A stretch of DNA of 64,000 nt from Chryseobacterium aquaticum (GCF_036677985.1 NZ_JAZDST010000012.1:86971-150970), one strand, 5' to 3'; shown: positions 7,622 through 26,639, counted from the stretch's first letter. The notes: generated by a model not told the origin, from the sequence alone. A program made the numbers and translations.

Positions 7622-8392
7622 ATGAAAAAATTATTTTATATTACGACATTATTTGTTTTCATTTTTGGCAAGAGCCAGATTACAAATATCAATGACGGAG
7701 AATCTTTATCACTTAGAATTCATTACGGCTTTTTAACGGCAGGATCTGCCAATCTTACTGCAAAAAAAACAAATTACAAAGGCGTTCCTCATCTTTATGT
7801 GAAAGGAACAGGACAAACATCTGGTGCAGTGAAGGCTTTTTTTAAAGTTGAAGACTTATATGAAAGTTACATTGATATGCAGACAGAACTTCCCAGTTAC
7901 TATGTAAGAAATGTAAAAGAAGGAAGCTATACACAACATTTGCAGACCACTTTCAACCATGACAACAATACTTTAATTTTAACCGATAAAAAGAATCCTG
8001 CAAATGGTTCTAAAACTATAAAATCTGTAAAAGGTGTTCAGGATATGCTTTCATGCTTCTATTTTTTGAGAAGTAAAACTCCTGCAGAACTAAGAACAGG
8101 TACAGTTTTTAACATGAATGTCTGGATTGATGACGAAATGTTTCCGTTTCAGTTAAAAGTGGTGGGAACAGAAAATTTAAAAACAAAATTCGGGACGATT
8201 AATGCTTTGAAGATCATTCCTTCTGTGAAAAGCGGAAGAGTTTTTAAAGAAAAAGAAGGAGTTACGATGTGGGTTTCTAATGATGCGAATCATATTCCAT
8301 TGTTACTGAAAGCAGAATTAGCAGTAGGATCTTTAAAAGCAAGTATTGACAGCTATAAAAACGTAAAGTATCCTTTGAAGTTTATTAAATAA
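7622..8392 (+). CDS. DUF3108-type secreted protein
   Basis: Signal peptide; GESLSLRIHYGFLTAG, FFKVEDLYESY and QDMLSCFY resemble DUF3108 proteins. Confidence 0.75.
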   Translation: MKKLFYITTLFVFIFGKSQITNINDGESLSLRIHYGFLTAGSANLTAKKTNYKGVPHLYVKGTGQTSGAVKAFFKVEDLYESYIDMQTELPSYYVRNVKEGSYTQHLQTTFNHDNNTLILTDKKNPANGSKTIKSVKGVQDMLSCFYFLRSKTPAELRTGTVFNMNVWIDDEMFPFQLKVVGTENLKTKFGTINALKIIPSVKSGRVFKEKEGVTMWVSNDANHIPLLLKAELAVGSLKASIDSYKNVKYPLKFIK

Positions 8393-8414
8393 ATTAATCA
8401 CAAAAATTGAAAAT

Positions 8415-8450
8415 AATAAGAGCGATTTCTTGACAGAAATCGCTCTTATT
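8415..8450. terminator. Strong hairpin terminator after the DUF3108 gene, probably bidirectional
   Basis: Perfect 16-bp stem AATAAGAGCGATTTCT-TGAC-AGAAATCGCTCTTATT. Confidence 0.8.
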
Positions 8451-8532
8451 AAATATTAAGGTTAATTATAGGATGTTTATTTTAGGTAATCATGAATATT
8501 AATTAAAAATTCAGATCTTTTTAAATTTTCCT

Positions 8533-8767
8533 GTATCGGTCACAGAGCTTGAAAGCTCTGCGACTATACTAAGGGTTTTAACAATTGTGTTTTTTAGAAT
8601 CGTTTCCGAATTTTTTTTCTGAGTTTAAGTATAATTTACAGAGCCTTTCGACTCTGTAAAAATACTTTGGCTTTTTATCATTTGTGTTTATACCTCCCCA
8701 AACCAAAAAATATTGGTTCCGATACTAATCTATATTTTTGTAAAGATGATTAGTGACATTTATCTTG
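8533..8767 (-). ncRNA. Putative structured small RNA, copy 1
   Basis: Downstream of a TATTTTTG element; four hairpins fold better on the minus strand; ends approximate. Confidence 0.65.
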
Positions 8768-8770
8768 AGA

Positions 8771-8850
8771 CAAAAATACGAACATCACAATATACAAATC
8801 CAGCAAAGCTTATCGATAAATGTCGATTTCATTGTAGATATTTATCTACA
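8771..8850 (-). promoter_or_regulatory. Promoter plus two 18-bp palindromic boxes, copy 1
   Basis: -7 element TATTTTTG (8771-8778), TTTG 16 nt upstream; boxes TATCGATAAATGTCGATT (8811-8828) and perfect 8-2-8 inverted repeat TGTAGATATTTATCTACA (8833-8850). Confidence 0.75.
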
Positions 8851-8996
8851 AAAATTACACTTAATGGGTTTTAAAATACATCATTTAATAAAAACATTAC
8901 AAAAGCAATTTCCCGAAAGAAATCACTCTTGTAAATATTAATTTAGTTGTTGAATGTTTTTAATTGATAAAAACCAGATATTCTGATTTTCTTAAT

Positions 8997-9215
8997 TATC
9001 GCGAAACCTGTAGATTCTGTGATATAAAAAAGGTTGTAATGATTGTAGCTTTAGAATCGTTTTCGTTTTTTCTCAAGGTTAAGTATAATTTACAGAGCCT
9101 TTCGACTCTGCAAAAAATACTTGTGTTTTTTCATTTGTGTTTTTACCTCCCCAACCAAAAATTCTTGGTTACGATACCAATCTATTTTGAACGATGATTA
9201 GTAACATTTTTCTTG
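8997..9215 (-). ncRNA. Putative structured small RNA, copy 2 (distal hairpin diverged)
   Basis: Same P1/P2/motif/P3 architecture as copy 1; ends approximate. Confidence 0.6.
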
Positions 9216-9218
9216 AGA

Positions 9219-9298
9219 CAAAAGTAGTAACATCATGATATACAAAGCCAATAAATCATGTCGATAGATATCGAACCAGCTGTAGATATTTATCGACA
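9219..9298 (-). promoter_or_regulatory. Promoter plus two 18-bp palindromic boxes, copy 2
   Basis: TACTTTTG (9219-9226); boxes TGTCGATAGATATCGAAC (9259-9276) and TGTAGATATTTATCGACA (9281-9298). Confidence 0.75.
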
Positions 9299-9432
9299 AA
9301 ATGATTTAAAAAACTTTAAAATTTAAATGAAATATTCGCAGTAGCCATTTTTGGACAGAACCGCTTTTCTAAATATTGAAATTTTTTATGGAGTTTTCTG
9401 ATATGATAGAAATTCAAAAAATTGAATTCCTT

Positions 9433-9655
9433 GTATCAATCACAGAGCAAGAAAGCTCTGCGATTATACTAAAGGTTGTAATAATTGTGTTTTTAGAATC
9501 ATTTCCGAGTTTTCTTAAATATAGTTTACAGAGCCTTTCGACTCCGCAAACAATATTTTAGATTTTTTCATCATTTGTATTTTTACCTCCCAAGTTAAAA
9601 ATCTTGGTTTGTCACTAATCTATCTTTGGAACAATGATTAGTGATATTTTTCTTG
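9433..9655 (-). ncRNA. Putative structured small RNA, copy 3
   Basis: Same architecture as copy 1, with a compensatory G-C to A-U change in the distal hairpin; ends approximate. Confidence 0.65.
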
Positions 9656-9658
9656 AGA

Positions 9659-9738
9659 CAAAAGTAGTAACATATTGATATACAAACACAGTAAATCATA
9701 TCGATAAATGTCGAACGAGCTATAGATACTTATCTACA
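9659..9738 (-). promoter_or_regulatory. Promoter plus two 18-bp palindromic boxes, copy 3
   Basis: TACTTTTG (9659-9666); boxes TATCGATAAATGTCGAAC (9699-9716) and TATAGATACTTATCTACA (9721-9738). Confidence 0.75.
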
Positions 9739-9793
9739 ACTTATGATAAAGATGATTAAAAATAAAATTTACAAGAGAATCTTTAAGTGATAA

Positions 9794-10438
9794 TTACTGA
9801 TGGTTTTTCACCAATTCAACAAGTTCTACAATATTATCAATCTTTAATTTGTCAAATATCCGCTTTTTAATTGTACTTACTGTATTTTGTTTGAGATCCA
9901 GAAGATTTGCAATTTCGAGGTTTCCGTGACCTTTGCTGTACAGTTCTGCAATTTGTAATTCTCTTTCGGTAAGACCAAACAATGGATTGATAACTTTACG
10001 ATCTCGTAGAGAATTCATCAACAAAGCCTGTGTAGCGGGAGAAATATATTCTCCATCTTCTTTCATTTTTATAATTGCTTTCTTGATTTCTTCTTCCTCA
10101 CTTAGCTTGCTTAAAAAACCATTGGCACCTGCATTGATGTATTTAAGAGCATGCATATTTTCGTCTATTCCTGTAAATACCAGAATTTTTGTCTCAGGAT
10201 TTATTTTTCTTATTTCAGGTATTAAACTCAAACTATTACCGTCTGGAAAATGAGCATCAATAATCACTATATCTATGGGATTTGCTTTTATCAGCTCCAA
10301 TGTCTTTTGTAAATTCGGAGCCTGAAGAATTACAGTGTCAAACGGCAGATCTTCCAACAGGAAAGCGATTCCCTGTCGTATTAAGCTATGATCATCTGCA
10401 AGAAGAAAATTTATTGATGTATTCTCAATATAACTCAT
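9794..10438 (-). CDS. NarL/FixJ (LuxR-HTH) family response regulator
   Basis: LLADDH, IIDAHFPDG (phospho-Asp), VFTG, GFLSK receiver residues; LTERELQI...EIANLLDLKQNTVST HTH. Confidence 0.93.
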   Translation of the reverse strand: MSYIENTSINFLLADDHSLIRQGIAFLLEDLPFDTVILQAPNLQKTLELIKANPIDIVIIDAHFPDGNSLSLIPEIRKINPETKILVFTGIDENMHALKYINAGANGFLSKLSEEEEIKKAIIKMKEDGEYISPATQALLMNSLRDRKVINPLFGLTERELQIAELYSKGHGNLEIANLLDLKQNTVSTIKKRIFDKLKIDNIVELVELVKNHQ

Positions 10439-12165
10439 TTATTCAACTTTAAATTAAGAGAAAAAGATACGGTAGTTCCTTCATTTAACTCGCTATCGAC
10501 AGAAATATTACCTGAATATAATTCGACAAGTTCTTTACACAAACTCAATCCTAGACCCGCACCAAGATTTTCTACCTCATCGGAAATAATTCCCTGATAA
10601 TAAGGTTCAAATATTTTTTCTAAATCTGACTTTGAAATTCCTACGCCAGAATCCGTAATCTGCGTTTTTAGAACAACAGTATTTTCATCTACAGGCTCTG
10701 CAGAAGTCTTTACCGTAATTTCACCATTCTCTGTAAATTTATTGGCATTTCCGAGAATATTCATAAAAAGCTGATTGATTTTTGTATTGTCTGAATATAC
10801 AACAATATTCGGATCAATGTTTTTATCAATAATAAATTTATTATTTCTTGTCTGAATATAAGGCTCTATAGAAGTTAAGATAGATTCTACTTCGTTATTC
10901 AGATTAAAACTCACAGGAATCAGTTTATTTTCAACCTGTTGATTTTTAGTATATTCCAAAATCTGATTTGCCTGCATCAAAAGTGTATTATTAGTAAAGC
11001 TTATAGATTTTAAATACTCTTTAATGCTTTCGTCTGTTGTTTTCTTATTAATCCTATTGATGAAAATACCAATAATTTTCAAAGGAGACCTCAATTCGTG
11101 GCTCAACATTCCCAGAATTCTGTTTTTGAAATTCAGATTCTCTTTAATCTGAAGATTAGCAGCATTTAATCTTCTCTCATAAATAAATGCAATTCTTGTA
11201 AAATACATGATTAATATAGAAACGATAAACATCAAAATCATTAATCCTATGACCAGATCTTTTCTGATTTTATTACTTTTAGAATTTTGCGCAGCATACT
11301 CTTTTTCAAGATCCGTTTTAGAATCTTTTACCGCAGATTCATACACTCTCATCAGTTCGTTACTGTAAACCAATAATGAATTGAATGTAGAAAAGAGCTT
11401 CACACTCTCGTTTTTCCCATTATCTTTATTCTTGTTTACATTTACACGTATTTTTTGAACTTCTTTTGTGTAATGCTTATTGATGGAGTTTACAATACTG
11501 TCAACTTCACCTTTTACAGTAGGAATATCTAATATTTTACCGCCTTTTACCGTTACTACCACACTGTCTTTCCTTACGTTTTCCTTTCCTGATATTGCAT
11601 CACCGATACGACCAAACAAACCCTTCTTTTTTACGGTATCAGAATATGTTTTGGTTTGTACCTCAAATTTATCGAAATTATAATTGTAGTTGTACGTTTT
11701 AAGTTTCGGCAGAGCTTCGGGTATTTTTAGATTTGCATTTGTAGAAAACTGATAGGTAGAATCTGTAAGCAATTTTAGATTTTTTGTTTCGCCTACATTC
11801 TTTTTGTGAGATACTAAAATAGTTTTTACTCTCGGATTTTGAAATTTAAAATTATTAATGCTGTCAAGATTTTTTGTCAGTTTATTAACAGAAGTAAAAT
11901 AAGATTTTAAATACTGATCGTCTCGGCTGGTAACGTATTCCTGAAAATAATTTTGTGCATTATTAAGCTCTTTTCGGGAATCATCCGTAAGGTTCTCCAA
12001 TTGGTGAACTTCATTTAATTGTTTTTCAATGAAGTTTAAATTCTTATTATTAACGAATTCATTGTAAAAAAAACCTGCTATTATACATTGTATTAAAAGA
12101 ATGCAAATAATAAAAGAATATTGTACAATTTTTCTCAATCTAAAACTCATCGACTTTTTAACCAT
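10435..12165 (-). CDS. Membrane sensor histidine kinase (HisKA + HATPase_c)
   Basis: Two TM segments flanking a periplasmic domain; SHELRSPL H-box, NILGNANKFT, DSGVGI, GAGLGLSLC; 4-nt overlap with the response regulator. Confidence 0.93.
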   Translation of the reverse strand: MVKKSMSFRLRKIVQYSFIICILLIQCIIAGFFYNEFVNNKNLNFIEKQLNEVHQLENLTDDSRKELNNAQNYFQEYVTSRDDQYLKSYFTSVNKLTKNLDSINNFKFQNPRVKTILVSHKKNVGETKNLKLLTDSTYQFSTNANLKIPEALPKLKTYNYNYNFDKFEVQTKTYSDTVKKKGLFGRIGDAISGKENVRKDSVVVTVKGGKILDIPTVKGEVDSIVNSINKHYTKEVQKIRVNVNKNKDNGKNESVKLFSTFNSLLVYSNELMRVYESAVKDSKTDLEKEYAAQNSKSNKIRKDLVIGLMILMFIVSILIMYFTRIAFIYERRLNAANLQIKENLNFKNRILGMLSHELRSPLKIIGIFINRINKKTTDESIKEYLKSISFTNNTLLMQANQILEYTKNQQVENKLIPVSFNLNNEVESILTSIEPYIQTRNNKFIIDKNIDPNIVVYSDNTKINQLFMNILGNANKFTENGEITVKTSAEPVDENTVVLKTQITDSGVGISKSDLEKIFEPYYQGIISDEVENLGAGLGLSLCKELVELYSGNISVDSELNEGTTVSFSLNLKLNK

Positions 12166-17295: not shown

Positions 17296-18960
17296 ATGAT
17301 CAAATCATTACTGCTCAGTTTTTTCACATTTTTATCTGTTTTACATCTTGCACAGACTTATGAAATTCAATACACAAGTTCTTATAATGGCAAAATACAG
17401 CCCAATCAAAACCCTGTCATTGTTTGGGTGAATGAAACTGAAAATTATATTTTAAATTCAAAAATAAAAGATCAGAAAAACGAATATCCCTTTGAGATCA
17501 GTAAAATAGAAAAACCTTCCAACACAATCATTTCATACGGATTTTTAAAATATGGGGAAATTATTTCAACTTCTGACGCCCAATCAATTGGAAAACAAAG
17601 TTTTGAATTTACAGATAAAACAAAGAAAATTTTAGGATATAATTGTAAACAGGCGGTTACAAAAATCAATTCAAACACCATTGAAATTTGGTATACCAAT
17701 GATCTTAAACTGAAAGGTGGACCATCTAGCCTCGGACAAAACTTAGGTTTGGTTTTAGAAATCGAGCGAAACGGAAATTCCGCAACTACCGCCACTTCTC
17801 TGAAAAAGATCAAAAAATCCGGTATTGAAAATATTATCAACAAGCCGACAACGACGACGGATCTTTTAAGCTACAAAGATTTGCTTTGGAAAAGCAGATT
17901 TACCAGTTTAAAAGTTTTTGAAAACGAAATCATCAATTTTTCTGATCAATCAAAGTCAGACGAAAATATCAAGCGATTTGCCAACGGAACTATTATTCTC
18001 AAAAAAATAAAGTTCCCGGAAATTTCACAAGGTGAAAATATTTTTATTGAATTAAAACAACAATCCAACGGCGATGCTTATGACAGAACAGGAACTGTAT
18101 TTTTTATTCCTGAAAACAAATCTCAATCTTTCTTTGACGGACTGGAAAAAGGAGTAAAAACTCTTCCTGCATACGAAAACGGGAACGGTAAACAATATTT
18201 TGGTGTTATTTCTACTGAAAATTACCAACCAACTGTAGAACTGATGAGATTTTTTACAGCATTCGGGATTAATAAATTCAATAATCTGGAACTGAAAGAT
18301 AAAACCTGGCAAATAGTGAGTCCGTTTCGTCAAGACGTTACAGAACTGAAACCTTCTCTTTCGGGAAAAGAAATCTGGGTAGGAACATTTATCGGGAATT
18401 ACGACAAAGGAGGTCATAAAGTAACTTTAGATATTACAATTCACAAAAGCGATCAAATTGTACATACCAACAAAAAGGTAATCCCACTTTTTAATACTAC
18501 AAATATTATGGAAATGGCTGGACAGGATTATGCAACAATGTTTGATAACGATAAAGGAATTCTGGTAGAATTTAATCTCGAAAAAGATCTTAAAAATGCA
18601 CAGTTAAGATATATTACAACCGGACATGGAGGTTGGGAAAACGGCGACGAATTTATCCCGAAAGAAAATTATATTTTTTTAGACGAGAAAAAGATCTTCT
18701 CTTTTACGCCTTGGAGAACAGATTGTGGTTCTTATCGACTTTACAATCCTGCTTCAGGAAATTTTCCGGACGGACTTTCTTCTTCAGATCTTAGTCGTTC
18801 AAATTGGTGTCCGGGAACAATTACCAATCCCAATTATATACAATTGGGTGATTTAAAAGCTGGAAAACATACTATTCAGGTGAAAATTCCTCAGGGAAAA
18901 CCGGAAGGAACAAGTTTCAGCGCATGGAATATTTCCGGTGTTTTATTAGGTTCAGAATAA
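17296..18960 (+). CDS. Peptide-N-glycosidase F family protein with N-terminal GLPGLI-like domain (PNGase F-II type)
   Basis: Signal peptide; KKILGYNCKQA...WYT..GP GLPGLI-like segment; DAYDRTG, TTGHGGW..GDEF and RSNWCPG motifs. Confidence 0.82.
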   Translation: MIKSLLLSFFTFLSVLHLAQTYEIQYTSSYNGKIQPNQNPVIVWVNETENYILNSKIKDQKNEYPFEISKIEKPSNTIISYGFLKYGEIISTSDAQSIGKQSFEFTDKTKKILGYNCKQAVTKINSNTIEIWYTNDLKLKGGPSSLGQNLGLVLEIERNGNSATTATSLKKIKKSGIENIINKPTTTTDLLSYKDLLWKSRFTSLKVFENEIINFSDQSKSDENIKRFANGTIILKKIKFPEISQGENIFIELKQQSNGDAYDRTGTVFFIPENKSQSFFDGLEKGVKTLPAYENGNGKQYFGVISTENYQPTVELMRFFTAFGINKFNNLELKDKTWQIVSPFRQDVTELKPSLSGKEIWVGTFIGNYDKGGHKVTLDITIHKSDQIVHTNKKVIPLFNTTNIMEMAGQDYATMFDNDKGILVEFNLEKDLKNAQLRYITTGHGGWENGDEFIPKENYIFLDEKKIFSFTPWRTDCGSYRLYNPASGNFPDGLSSSDLSRSNWCPGTITNPNYIQLGDLKAGKHTIQVKIPQGKPEGTSFSAWNISGVLLGSE

Positions 18961-19028
18961 AACAAAACCTCCTTGCAATATTATTACAAGGAGGTAAAAA
19001 CACAAATGATGAAAAAAAATTATTTCGA
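18961..19028 (-). ncRNA. Candidate U-rich small RNA
   Basis: Minus-strand terminator with no minus-strand gene nearby; TTTTTTTTCATCATTTGTGTTTTT precedes it; only an imperfect promoter (TTCCTTTG, 19033-19040). Confidence 0.4.
18964..18995 (-). terminator. Terminator hairpin with a U tract only on the minus strand
   Basis: ACCTCCTTG/CAAGGAGGT stem; followed by TTTTGTTTT on the minus strand but AAAAACAC on the plus strand. Confidence 0.7.
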
Positions 19029-25443: not shown

Positions 25444-26021
25444 TGAGCAAAGGAAGACTGGAAGCTTTCAGTGATGGTGTCTTGGCTATCATCATTACCA
25501 TCATGGTTCTTGAATTAAAAGTACCGGAAGGAAGCAATTGGCAGAGCCTGAAAACTCTTATTCCAAAATTTTTAGCTTACATTTTTAGTTTTATCTATCT
25601 CGGAATCTATTGGAATAACCATCATCATTTGTTTCAGGCAGTAAAAAGAGTAAACGGAAAAATTCTGTGGGCGAATCTTCATTTATTATTCTGGCTTTCG
25701 CTCATGCCTTTTGCCACACAGTGGATTGGCGAAACACACTTCGCAAAAAATCCTGCTGCAGCTTATGGTATTGTATTGATGATGTGCGCAATCGCTTATC
25801 TTATTCTCGAAAATTTAATTCTAAAAAGCGAAGGTGAAGATTCAAAATTAAAGGAAGCAATTAATTACAAGTTCAAAGAATATTTCTCAATTGCATCTTA
25901 CACATTGGGTTTAGCGACATCGTTTTTTTATCCTTATCTTGCCATAGGTTTCTATTATTTGGTTGCCTTAGTGTGGCTTATTCCCGACAAAAGAATTGAA
26001 AAATTATTAAATAAAGACTAA
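25443..26021 (+). CDS. TMEM175 family protein (K+ channel-like)
   Basis: RLEAFSDGVLAIIITIMVLEL signature, WNNHH, NLHLLFWLSLMPF. Confidence 0.9.
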   Translation: MSKGRLEAFSDGVLAIIITIMVLELKVPEGSNWQSLKTLIPKFLAYIFSFIYLGIYWNNHHHLFQAVKRVNGKILWANLHLLFWLSLMPFATQWIGETHFAKNPAAAYGIVLMMCAIAYLILENLILKSEGEDSKLKEAINYKFKEYFSIASYTLGLATSFFYPYLAIGFYYLVALVWLIPDKRIEKLLNKD

Positions 26022-26022
26022 T

Positions 26023-26241
26023 ATGGAAACCCATGAATATACCAACGGTGAGATAATCGTCATTTGGCAACCCAAAAAATGCATTCACGCTGCAATTTGT
26101 GTAAAAAGTCTTCCGCAGGTTTACAATCCGAAAGAAAAACCCTGGCTGAAACCGGAAAACGCAACATCAGCAGAATTAAAGAACCAGATCGATCTTTGTC
26201 CTTCAGGAGCATTAAGTTATCAATTCAACACGAAAAAATAA
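26023..26241 (+). CDS. Divergent 4Fe-4S mono-cluster protein (YjdI-like)
   Basis: CIHAAICV...PW...CPSGAL. Confidence 0.85.
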   Translation: METHEYTNGEIIVIWQPKKCIHAAICVKSLPQVYNPKEKPWLKPENATSAELKNQIDLCPSGALSYQFNTKK

Positions 26242-26639
26242 TGGCAGTAACAGTAAAAGCAAGTTTAGGCAAAACGAAATATTACACAGAAGTAATTGCC
26301 GGAGAAAATCAACTGATTACAGATGAACCAGTCGATAAAGGCGGACAAAATAAAGGTTTTAATCCATTTGAAATCTTGGCAACTTCTTTAGCAAGCTGTA
26401 CTGCAGCAACGCTGAGAATGTATATCGACAGAAAAGAATGGGATGTAGAAAAAATAGATGTGGAGGTAGAATTGGAAAATTTTCCACTAACAAAATTGGC
26501 AGTTTTTAAAAGAAACATTAGTTTTGAAGGAGACGGTTTAAGCGAAGAGCAAATGAAAAGGCTTCATGCGATTGCAGACGCTTGTCCGGTACACAAAATT
26601 TTAACCAACGAAATAGAAATTCAAACCAAATTTTCATAA
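26241..26639 (+). CDS. OsmC family protein
   Basis: DEPVDKGG, PFEILATSLASCT, ADACPVHK; start re-set to MAVTVK at 26241 (TAATG overlap). Confidence 0.88.
   Translation: MAVTVKASLGKTKYYTEVIAGENQLITDEPVDKGGQNKGFNPFEILATSLASCTAATLRMYIDRKEWDVEKIDVEVELENFPLTKLAVFKRNISFEGDGLSEEQMKRLHAIADACPVHKILTNEIEIQTKFS

Follow-up and report, generated by a model that had tools for sequence, protein, structure and literature searches.

Three tandem copies of a structured RNA beside a histidine kinase/NarL-type regulator pair in Chryseobacterium aquaticum, and a complementary family of predicted tiny RNAs

Organization of the locus

The DNA analyzed here is a window of 64,000 nucleotides from Chryseobacterium aquaticum (NZ_JAZDST010000012.1:86971-150970), in which all positions are counted from the first letter. 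The region between positions 8400 and 9800 contains three direct repeats on the minus strand, with units of approximately 450 nt and a period of 440-454 nt. An initial annotation of this array had proposed that the three copies encode a strand-specific RNA that folds into four stems, P1 to P4, with pairing maintained by compensatory changes. The genes of a histidine kinase and of a response regulator of the NarL/LuxR type are located immediately upstream of the array, also on the minus strand, and the best NCBIfam resemblance of the regulator is to the UvrY/SirA/GacA family, with a score that falls below the family cut-off. Beyond the array there is a convergent gene for a DUF3108 protein and no downstream gene on the same strand, which means that the units are not leaders of any downstream gene. 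The same three-copy array is found in two sister genomes (G080 and G092).

All units share the same order of signals. Reading the minus strand 5' to 3', a 16-bp palindrome, GTAGATAAATATCTAC, is followed about 22 bp further on by a second palindrome, TCGAnATnTATCGA, then by a promoter and by a sequence of approximately 250 nt with four hairpins. The promoter ahead of every copy is an exact match to the Bacteroidetes type, TTTG-N16-TAnnTTTG, and these three account for three of only five matches in the 64-kb window. The 16-bp palindrome is rare in the 3.9-Mb genome, with five occurrences, three of them at the array. When 20 loci from other genera of the family were inspected, 19 had this type of palindrome right after the regulator gene. 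The palindromes are putative sites for the adjacent NarL-type regulator, and are called operators below. Intrinsic terminators were recognized for copies 1 and 2, while the terminator search returned no canonical one for copy 3. The transcripts probably run on to the two terminators, which lie outside the coordinates of the initial annotation. The features of the locus are as follows:

10435..12165, minus strand: histidine kinase gene (Pfam HisKA and HATPase_c), overlapping the regulator gene by 4 nt
9794..10438, minus strand: response regulator gene of the NarL/LuxR type (Pfam Response_reg and GerE), immediately upstream of the array
8813..8849, minus strand: operator pair of copy 1, with the palindromes GTAGATAAATATCTAC (8834-8849) and TCGACATTTATCGA (8813-8826)
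9261-9297 (copy 2) and 9701-9737 (copy 3), minus strand: operator pairs equivalent to that of copy 1
8771-8798 (copy 1), 9219-9246 (copy 2) and 9659-9686 (copy 3), minus strand: promoters matching the pattern TTTG-N16-TAnnTTTG
8402..8765, minus strand: predicted transcript of copy 1, starting approximately 6-9 nt past the -7 box and ending at an intrinsic terminator
8887..9213, minus strand: predicted transcript of copy 2, from its promoter and terminator match
9409..9653, minus strand: predicted transcript of copy 3, from its promoter, with an uncertain 3' end marked only by a weak hairpin (9409-9430)
8402-8451 (copy 1, hairpin and T-run) and 8887-8934 (copy 2), minus strand: intrinsic terminators

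The three units are most likely sibling genes that are transcribed independently from the minus strand and encode a structured non-coding RNA.

Structure and spread of the RNA

The four stems were recovered on the minus strand in both the minimum free energy and the centroid folds of all three copies, with folding z-scores of -6.0, -3.8, and -7.7 for copies 1, 2, and 3. An alignment of seven distinct paralogue and orthologue sequences from this genome and its two sister genomes (alignment A4) was used to evaluate the proposed structure, which pairs 92.1% of the cells; in controls with the 3' partners displaced by one to three columns, the value falls to 33-39%. Covariance models of the P3 module (R1) and of the P4 module (R2) were searched against 46 loci from the genus and neighbouring genera. 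The stems are placed as follows:

8724..8754 (copy 1), 9175-9203 (copy 2) and 9612-9644 (copy 3), minus strand: P1 hairpin, from the folds and A4
8748-8754/8724-8730 (copy 1), 9196-9203/9175-9182 (copy 2) and 9636-9644/9612-9620 (copy 3), minus strand: the two strands of P1
8701..8718 (copy 1), 9153-9170 (copy 2) and 9590-9607 (copy 3, in a shifted register), minus strand: P2 hairpin, from the folds and A4
8627..8667 (copy 1), 9081-9122 (copy 2) and 9517-9558 (copy 3), minus strand: extended P3 hairpin, from model R1 and covariation
8530..8574 (copy 1) and 9429-9475 (copy 3), minus strand: long P4 hairpin, from model R2 and covariation, with a diverged equivalent at 8987-9031 (copy 2)

The changes that had been described between the copies are present in A4. 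P1 pairs as ACUAAUC/GAUUAGU, with a U-A pair turned into U-G in copy 2 of this genome and an extension to 9 bp in copy 3, and its outer pair is U-A in copy 2 and C-G in copy 3. P2 pairs as AACCAA/UUGGUU in copies 1 and 2 and in a shifted register, as CCAAG/CUUGG, in copy 3. P3, described as RCAGAGUC-GAAA-GGCUCUGU, contains an invariant U-G pair, and its change from A-U to G-U is restricted to copy 3 of this genome. The G-C pair of P4 in copy 1 is indeed an A-U pair in copy 3, and P4 has diverged in copy 2, where the fold is still possible with pairing that is partly achieved through G-C to A-U and wobble changes. Two helices had been missed. An outer stem, AAGUAU/AUACUU, extends P3 and shows a G-C to A-U swap of its own, so that in copy 1 the hairpin is made of this outer stem, the inner stem ACAGAGUC/GGCUCUGU, and the GAAA loop; P4 has an outermost stem, CCU(U)/(A)AGG, whose second pair is C-G in some sequences and U-A in others. 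In the copy 3 orthologue of sister genome G092, a 9-nt tandem duplication, GATTGATAC GATTGATAC, is found in the 3' strand of P4, and the P4 model score drops from approximately 70 to 50 bits.

The absence of significant covariation in a deep alignment had been named as the outcome that would refute the structure, and significant covariation was found for both P3 and P4. Homologues of the RNA diverge fast, yet they are widespread. For P3, 86 matches (70 distinct) have 96.6% of the cells paired, against 25-47% in slid controls, with changes on both sides in 8 of the 14 pairs (60 cells). The covariation score is 0.321, against a shuffle mean of 0.250, and none of 500 shuffles reaches the score, the paired percentage, or either of the both-sides counts. 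For P4, 22 matches (20 distinct) have 88.8% of the cells paired, with both-side changes in 9 of the 19 pairs (41 cells), and the covariation score of 0.332, against a shuffle mean of 0.175, is reached by none of 500 shuffles. These alignments were fitted to the models R1 and R2, which may inflate the covariation. A model-free alignment of 49 P3 sequences made with MAFFT only and folded de novo gave the same two helices, with 9 of the 14 pairs compensatory. In one genus, the apical loop of P3 changes from GAAA to UUCG, as is typical when structure, and not sequence, is under constraint.

The orientation proposed for the RNA is also borne out. Summed over the deep P3 alignment, approximately 15% of the cells are G-U or U-G pairs, and on the minus strand model R1 scores copies 1, 2, and 3 with 58.7, 54.0, and 52.9 bits, about twice what the plus strand gives at these positions (58.7 versus 29.6 bits for copy 1). 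It follows from the G-U pairs and from the difference in score that the helices are RNA helices on the minus strand. The P4 model R2 gives scores of 76.6 and 71.7 bits. The support is not equal for all parts of the structure. P3 and P4 are strongly supported, while the 5' domain formed by P1 and P2 occurs in only 4 of 240 genomes of the genus, from four closely related species, and its evidence consists of one compensatory pair, two wobble changes, and one register shift, which makes these two stems plausible rather than demonstrated.

Searches of Rfam 15 with positions 8300-9900 returned best matches of 14.6-26.1 bits, from unrelated families with gathering scores of 35-141, and a scan of the whole window at gathering thresholds returned four tRNAs only. 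Orthologues of the regulator (E <= 1e-40) are found in 15 of the 49 genera of the family. Thirteen of the 20 downstream regions have ACACAAAT motifs further along the same strand, and the whole set contains only one match in reverse. The RNA belongs to a family that has not been described before, is found widely across the bacterial family, and accompanies the histidine kinase and NarL-type regulator pair. It is very likely that the array encodes a structured non-coding RNA that is linked to the two-component system.

Across the family, the RNA is modular. Its repeating module consists of an exposed AAACACAAAUGAUGAA motif, A-rich and similar to a start-codon region, and a stable hairpin after it, and the motif occurs one to seven times per RNA. 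The minimal forms, seen at four loci, comprise one or two motifs plus a terminator in approximately 75-110 nt, while the Chryseobacterium-type forms reach up to about seven modules, each with AAACACAAAUGAUGAA followed by a hairpin of the P3 or P4 type. The number of tandem units per locus ranges from one to four. P3 and P4 are related versions of one module, and P1 and P2 are a clade-specific 5' domain. Each copy of the window has two motifs, the second of which has decayed to ACACAAUUAUUA; relatives have an intact ACACAAAUGAUGAA at that position (e.g., locus L005).

8671..8697 (copy 1), 9125-9150 (copy 2) and 9561-9590 (copy 3), minus strand: exposed motif 1, GGAGGUAUAAACACAAAUGAUAAAAAG in copy 1, from accessibility and complementarity to the seed described below
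8576..8597 (copy 1), 9034-9054 (copy 2) and 9476-9496 (copy 3), minus strand: degenerate second motif, CUAAAAAACACAAUUGUUAAAA in copy 1, from the sequence

RNAalifold also predicted a long-range helix between GGAGGUA, located before motif 1, and UUACAACC, located after motif 2 (A4 columns 73-80/193-200). This helix would enclose motif 1, P3, and motif 2, and its columns are nearly invariant and give no covariation signal either way.

A predicted tiny-RNA family complementary to the motif

The motif has a perfectly complementary counterpart in the same window, at a locus between the PNGase F-II and asnB genes:

18959..19027, minus strand: predicted partner RNA of approximately 65-70 nt

This RNA would have a single-stranded 5' region, AAUAAUUUUUUUUCAUCAUUUGUGUUUUU, followed by a hairpin, ACCUCCUUG...CAAGGAGG, and a U-run. 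Its U-rich seed reads UUUUUUUUCAUCAUUUGUGUUUUU, and the motif recurs on the plus strand at approximately position 18990, beside the hairpin. The RNA is nearly invariant over six species, while its flanks diverge. The 22-mer AACACAAATGATGAAAAAAAAT is found as an exact match in all 151 genomes of the genus that were searched, with 2-11 copies in each and zero matches for the reversed control, and a 19-mer version is found in 40 of the 49 genera. In all 24 instances examined, the strand opposite to the motif reads AUUUUUUUUCAUCAUUUGUGUUUUU and, directly after it, has a stable hairpin that is rich in G and C and varies in sequence. A hairpin with a T-run was scored in 19 of them, and 11 have an exact TAnnTTTG box upstream, in seven cases exactly 12 nt away; some instances are located in 3' untranslated regions. 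The combination of seed, hairpin with T-run, and upstream box indicates that these instances would be small genes of approximately 65-70 nt, with a single-stranded 5' seed and a terminator. Rfam searches with eight partner loci gave no match at E <= 0.1; FopS, a small RNA of Bacteroides thetaiotaomicron, is reported to have been deposited in Rfam (PMC11697453), although its presence in the release used is unconfirmed.

Other members of this family were noted in the course of the analysis. In the genome of C. aquaticum, one is found in a 3' untranslated region approximately 80 nt after an 827-aa open reading frame (contig C8, ~292750-292940), and a longer one, of approximately 105 nt and with an extra 5' hairpin, is found on contig C24 (~8975-9100) and is kept in several species (loci L079, L084, L089, and L098). 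In another genus of the family, three loci have two or three neighbouring tiny-RNA paralogues with the seed CAUCGUUUG instead of CAUCAUUUG, for which no link to matching decoy motifs could be made.

The motif of the array is perfectly complementary to the invariant 5' seed of the 18959-19027 RNA and of its paralogues over 17-28 nt, and for copy 3 the match to the partner locus extends over approximately 28 nt. Motif 1 is predicted to be accessible, with a mean unpaired probability of 0.86 in copy 1 and 0.77 in copy 2, compared with 0.42-0.45 for the whole RNA; motif 1 of copy 3 falls outside the scoring pattern, and it is the degenerate second motif of this copy that scored 0.72. The predicted duplexes have energies of -22.6, -22.2, and -28.9 kcal/mol for copies 1 to 3, while shuffled sequences give approximately -16 to -17 kcal/mol with a standard deviation of 2.5. 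A base-pairing sponge needs an exposed site that can pair with a small-RNA seed encoded in its own genome, and the array offers one. Two abundant RNAs with perfect complementarity of this length in accessible regions will pair if they are co-expressed.

With accessible motifs, these duplex energies, and sites that are multiplied both within and between tandem genes that carry operators, the layout is the one expected of an inducible sponge or decoy. In such a mechanism, the sensor kinase would act through the regulator at the operators to switch on the array, the hairpins would serve as insulators that keep the motifs single-stranded and stabilize the RNA, and the tandem RNAs would base-pair with the tiny RNAs and titrate them, freeing whatever the tiny RNAs control. 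The helices, their strand, the modular build of the RNA, the synteny with the two-component system, and the complementarity are observed, and from these we infer the transcription of the units, the binding of the regulator, the pairing in vivo, and the direction of regulation. That the tandem RNAs are regulator-induced RNA-RNA sponges for the tiny RNAs is the interpretation that we favour, with moderate confidence.

Several observations weigh against it. The duplexes are rich in A and U and weak, and those of copies 1 and 2 are only about two to three standard deviations beyond the shuffles. Among 130 distinct motif instances, the substitutions show no clear bias toward those that preserve wobble pairing (A to G 91, A to T 106, A to C 76, and many G to A). 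The seed shows no preference for the starts of long open reading frames, with an average of -8.4 kcal/mol for windows at the first AUG and of -9.0 kcal/mol for windows at internal AUGs. The stems P1 and P2, plausible as they are, lack deep support and are confined to few genomes. Finally, a protein that binds the motif would account for its conservation equally well.

This last point leads to the main alternative, a protein sponge of the CrcZ/RsmZ type, in which the exposed motif would bind an RNA-binding protein and the regulator-induced RNAs would titrate this protein off mRNAs. The candidate binders would be the single RRM protein of the genome, ribosomal protein S1, or another factor, with the tiny RNAs either unconnected to the system or bound as an additional ligand. 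In the cbrAB-crcZ and GacA-rsmXYZ systems, a two-component system is followed by a sponge RNA with repeated motifs, and the gene order found here, with several A-rich single-stranded motifs placed between hairpins, mirrors them, as does the resemblance of the regulator to UvrY/SirA/GacA. The wobble-substitution analysis gives no support to RNA-RNA pairing, and the genome does encode one RRM_1 protein; proteins with this domain bind seed-bearing small RNAs in Bacteroides (PMC11697453). On the other hand, tblastn returned no homologue of Hfq (E. coli query, E > 2) or CsrA (E = 1.8), the motif is neither GGA nor AAnAAnAA, and there is a perfectly complementary and universally conserved RNA partner, which would hybridize with the tandem RNAs if co-expressed. 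We consider a protein sponge unlikely.

A polarity opposite to that of the favoured mechanism would make the tandem RNAs the regulators. Their targets would be the tiny RNAs together with the mRNA 3' untranslated regions that end in UUUUUUUUCAUCAUUUGUGUUUUU and a terminator, and pairing would alter the stability or the termination of the target instead of titrating an active small RNA. The occurrence of the anti-motif in 3' untranslated regions of protein genes, as on contig C8 in this genome and after stop codons at three other loci, is consistent with this, as is the lack of a general affinity of the seed for start regions. However, many copies of the anti-motif are preceded at 12 nt by a -7 box of their own, with no gene ahead of it, as stand-alone small-RNA genes would be, and up to seven sites per RNA are more natural for a sponge, which makes the reversed polarity improbable.

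It has also to be considered whether the units encode small peptides of 14-19 aa, translated from GGAGG-N11-AUG, with the hairpins as mRNA elements or terminators. Each copy does have a GGAGG resembling a Shine-Dalgarno sequence and an AUG, and the ending ESKGSVNY is common to copies 1 and 3, but the shared residues are the P3 stem read as codons, and frameshifts interrupt the reading frame of copy 2 and of the orthologues of copy 1. In relatives, the open reading frames that start from the AUG of the motif have 5-15 unrelated codons, with neither frame nor length conserved, several AUG motifs occur per RNA, and GGAGG is absent outside this clade, so a coding function is very improbable. Equally far-fetched is a repeat that acts at the DNA level only, as an array of regulator sites or a decaying duplication, which the partial degeneration of copy 2 in P4 and in the second motif could suggest, but which the compensatory and G-U-rich substitutions specific to one strand, the conserved promoter and terminator signals, and the maintenance of the locus across many genera contradict.

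Operators were also found away from the array. In the same genome (contig C24, ~25650-26450, minus strand), the operator variant GTAGATATTTATCTAT precedes a tandem of three tssD (Hcp) genes by approximately 400 nt; larger genes of a type VI secretion cluster come next, and the leader contains a copy of the motif, AAAUUACAAAUGAUGAAAAAAACAC. Six further genomes were checked, and one of them (G110) has the same arrangement of operator and tssD genes. In three genomes (G100, G097, and G077), an operator away from the array of the P3/P4 type is followed by further RNAs with three to six regularly spaced motifs. A perfect 16-bp palindrome on contig C48 of this genome (52307-52322) lies in AT-rich intergenic DNA without a recognizable motif RNA or a nearby gene start. 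The distribution of these sites may point to a small regulon that comprises sponge RNAs and secretion genes, and the operator upstream of tssD suggests that the switch may be coupled to interbacterial antagonism.

In its broadest form, which can only be put forward tentatively, the proposal is that a Weeksellaceae two-component system drives a multi-site sponge array in which start-codon-like motifs would soak up universal, multicopy tiny RNAs, giving a global post-transcriptional switch similar to Csr or Crc that operates between RNAs, without a protein. To our knowledge, Bacteroidota do not have the classical chaperone and sponge systems (Hfq, ProQ, CsrA), and it is for this reason that their post-transcriptional control is poorly understood. 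The locus provides a conserved and readily testable circuit made of a kinase, a regulator, operators, one to four sibling RNAs, and a complementary tiny-RNA family. If the proposal is correct, no sponge RNA system driven by a regulator would have been described in Flavobacteriia before this one, and it would assign a function to an abundant and unannotated family of tiny RNAs. The hairpin models supported by covariation can be used as seeds for new RNA family entries.

Comparison with known systems

Searches of the literature on the motif, or on small RNAs in Chryseobacterium, Elizabethkingia, and Riemerella, retrieved nothing relevant, and the two-component system published for Riemerella is of the OmpR/PhoR type and unrelated (PMC5399024). 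The closest functional analogues of the array are sponges of the CrcZ/RsmZ type and base-pairing sponges. The partner tiny RNAs resemble FopS and GibS of Bacteroides thetaiotaomicron, which are multicopy RNAs of approximately 55 nt in which a terminator hairpin comes after a conserved, single-stranded seed at the 5' end (PMC11697453). The architecture is alike and the phylum is the same, but the seed differs, and there is no sequence or Rfam match between them. The antagonist of FopS is a protein, RbpB, and a dedicated sponge RNA has not been described for it.

RsmX/Y/Z and CsrB/C share with the array a regulator of the NarL family with a palindromic upstream site, repeated modules, and a variable number of siblings that are sometimes in tandem. 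They differ in that CsrB and RsmZ have many GGA loops, whereas here there are no repeated GGA loops, a single GGAGG occurs per copy in this clade only and in none of the relatives, and no CsrA is detectable. In this clade the motif is placed in linkers and not in loops, and the kinase is not a tripartite hybrid kinase.

There is also a parallel in gene order with CrcZ, CrcY, and CrcX of Pseudomonas, which depend on CbrAB. In both cases the RNA gene is located directly after a two-component system, an adjacency that is kept here across 15 genera and in which the system would presumably drive the array. The RNAs have a few hundred nucleotides, sibling copies, and, between hairpins, A-rich single-stranded motifs that mimic sites close to the start codons of mRNAs. 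However, CrcZ is transcribed with sigma-54 and CbrB, while the array, in another phylum, has Bacteroidetes -33/-7 promoters and NarL-type palindromes. The motif is AAACACAAAUGAUGAA instead of AAnAAnAA, Hfq is not detectable, Rfam gives no match, and the array has a complementary RNA partner.

With respect to the proposed mechanism, the array would act like the base-pairing sponges of enterobacteria, SroC (acting on GcvB), the chbBC spacer (on ChiX), 3'ETS-leuZ, and AgvB, in which a mimic of the target site titrates a small RNA. The enterobacterial sponges have one site, derive mostly from mRNAs or tRNAs, and depend on Hfq, whereas the RNAs described here are stand-alone and linked to a regulator, with one to seven sites in each and one to four copies in tandem.

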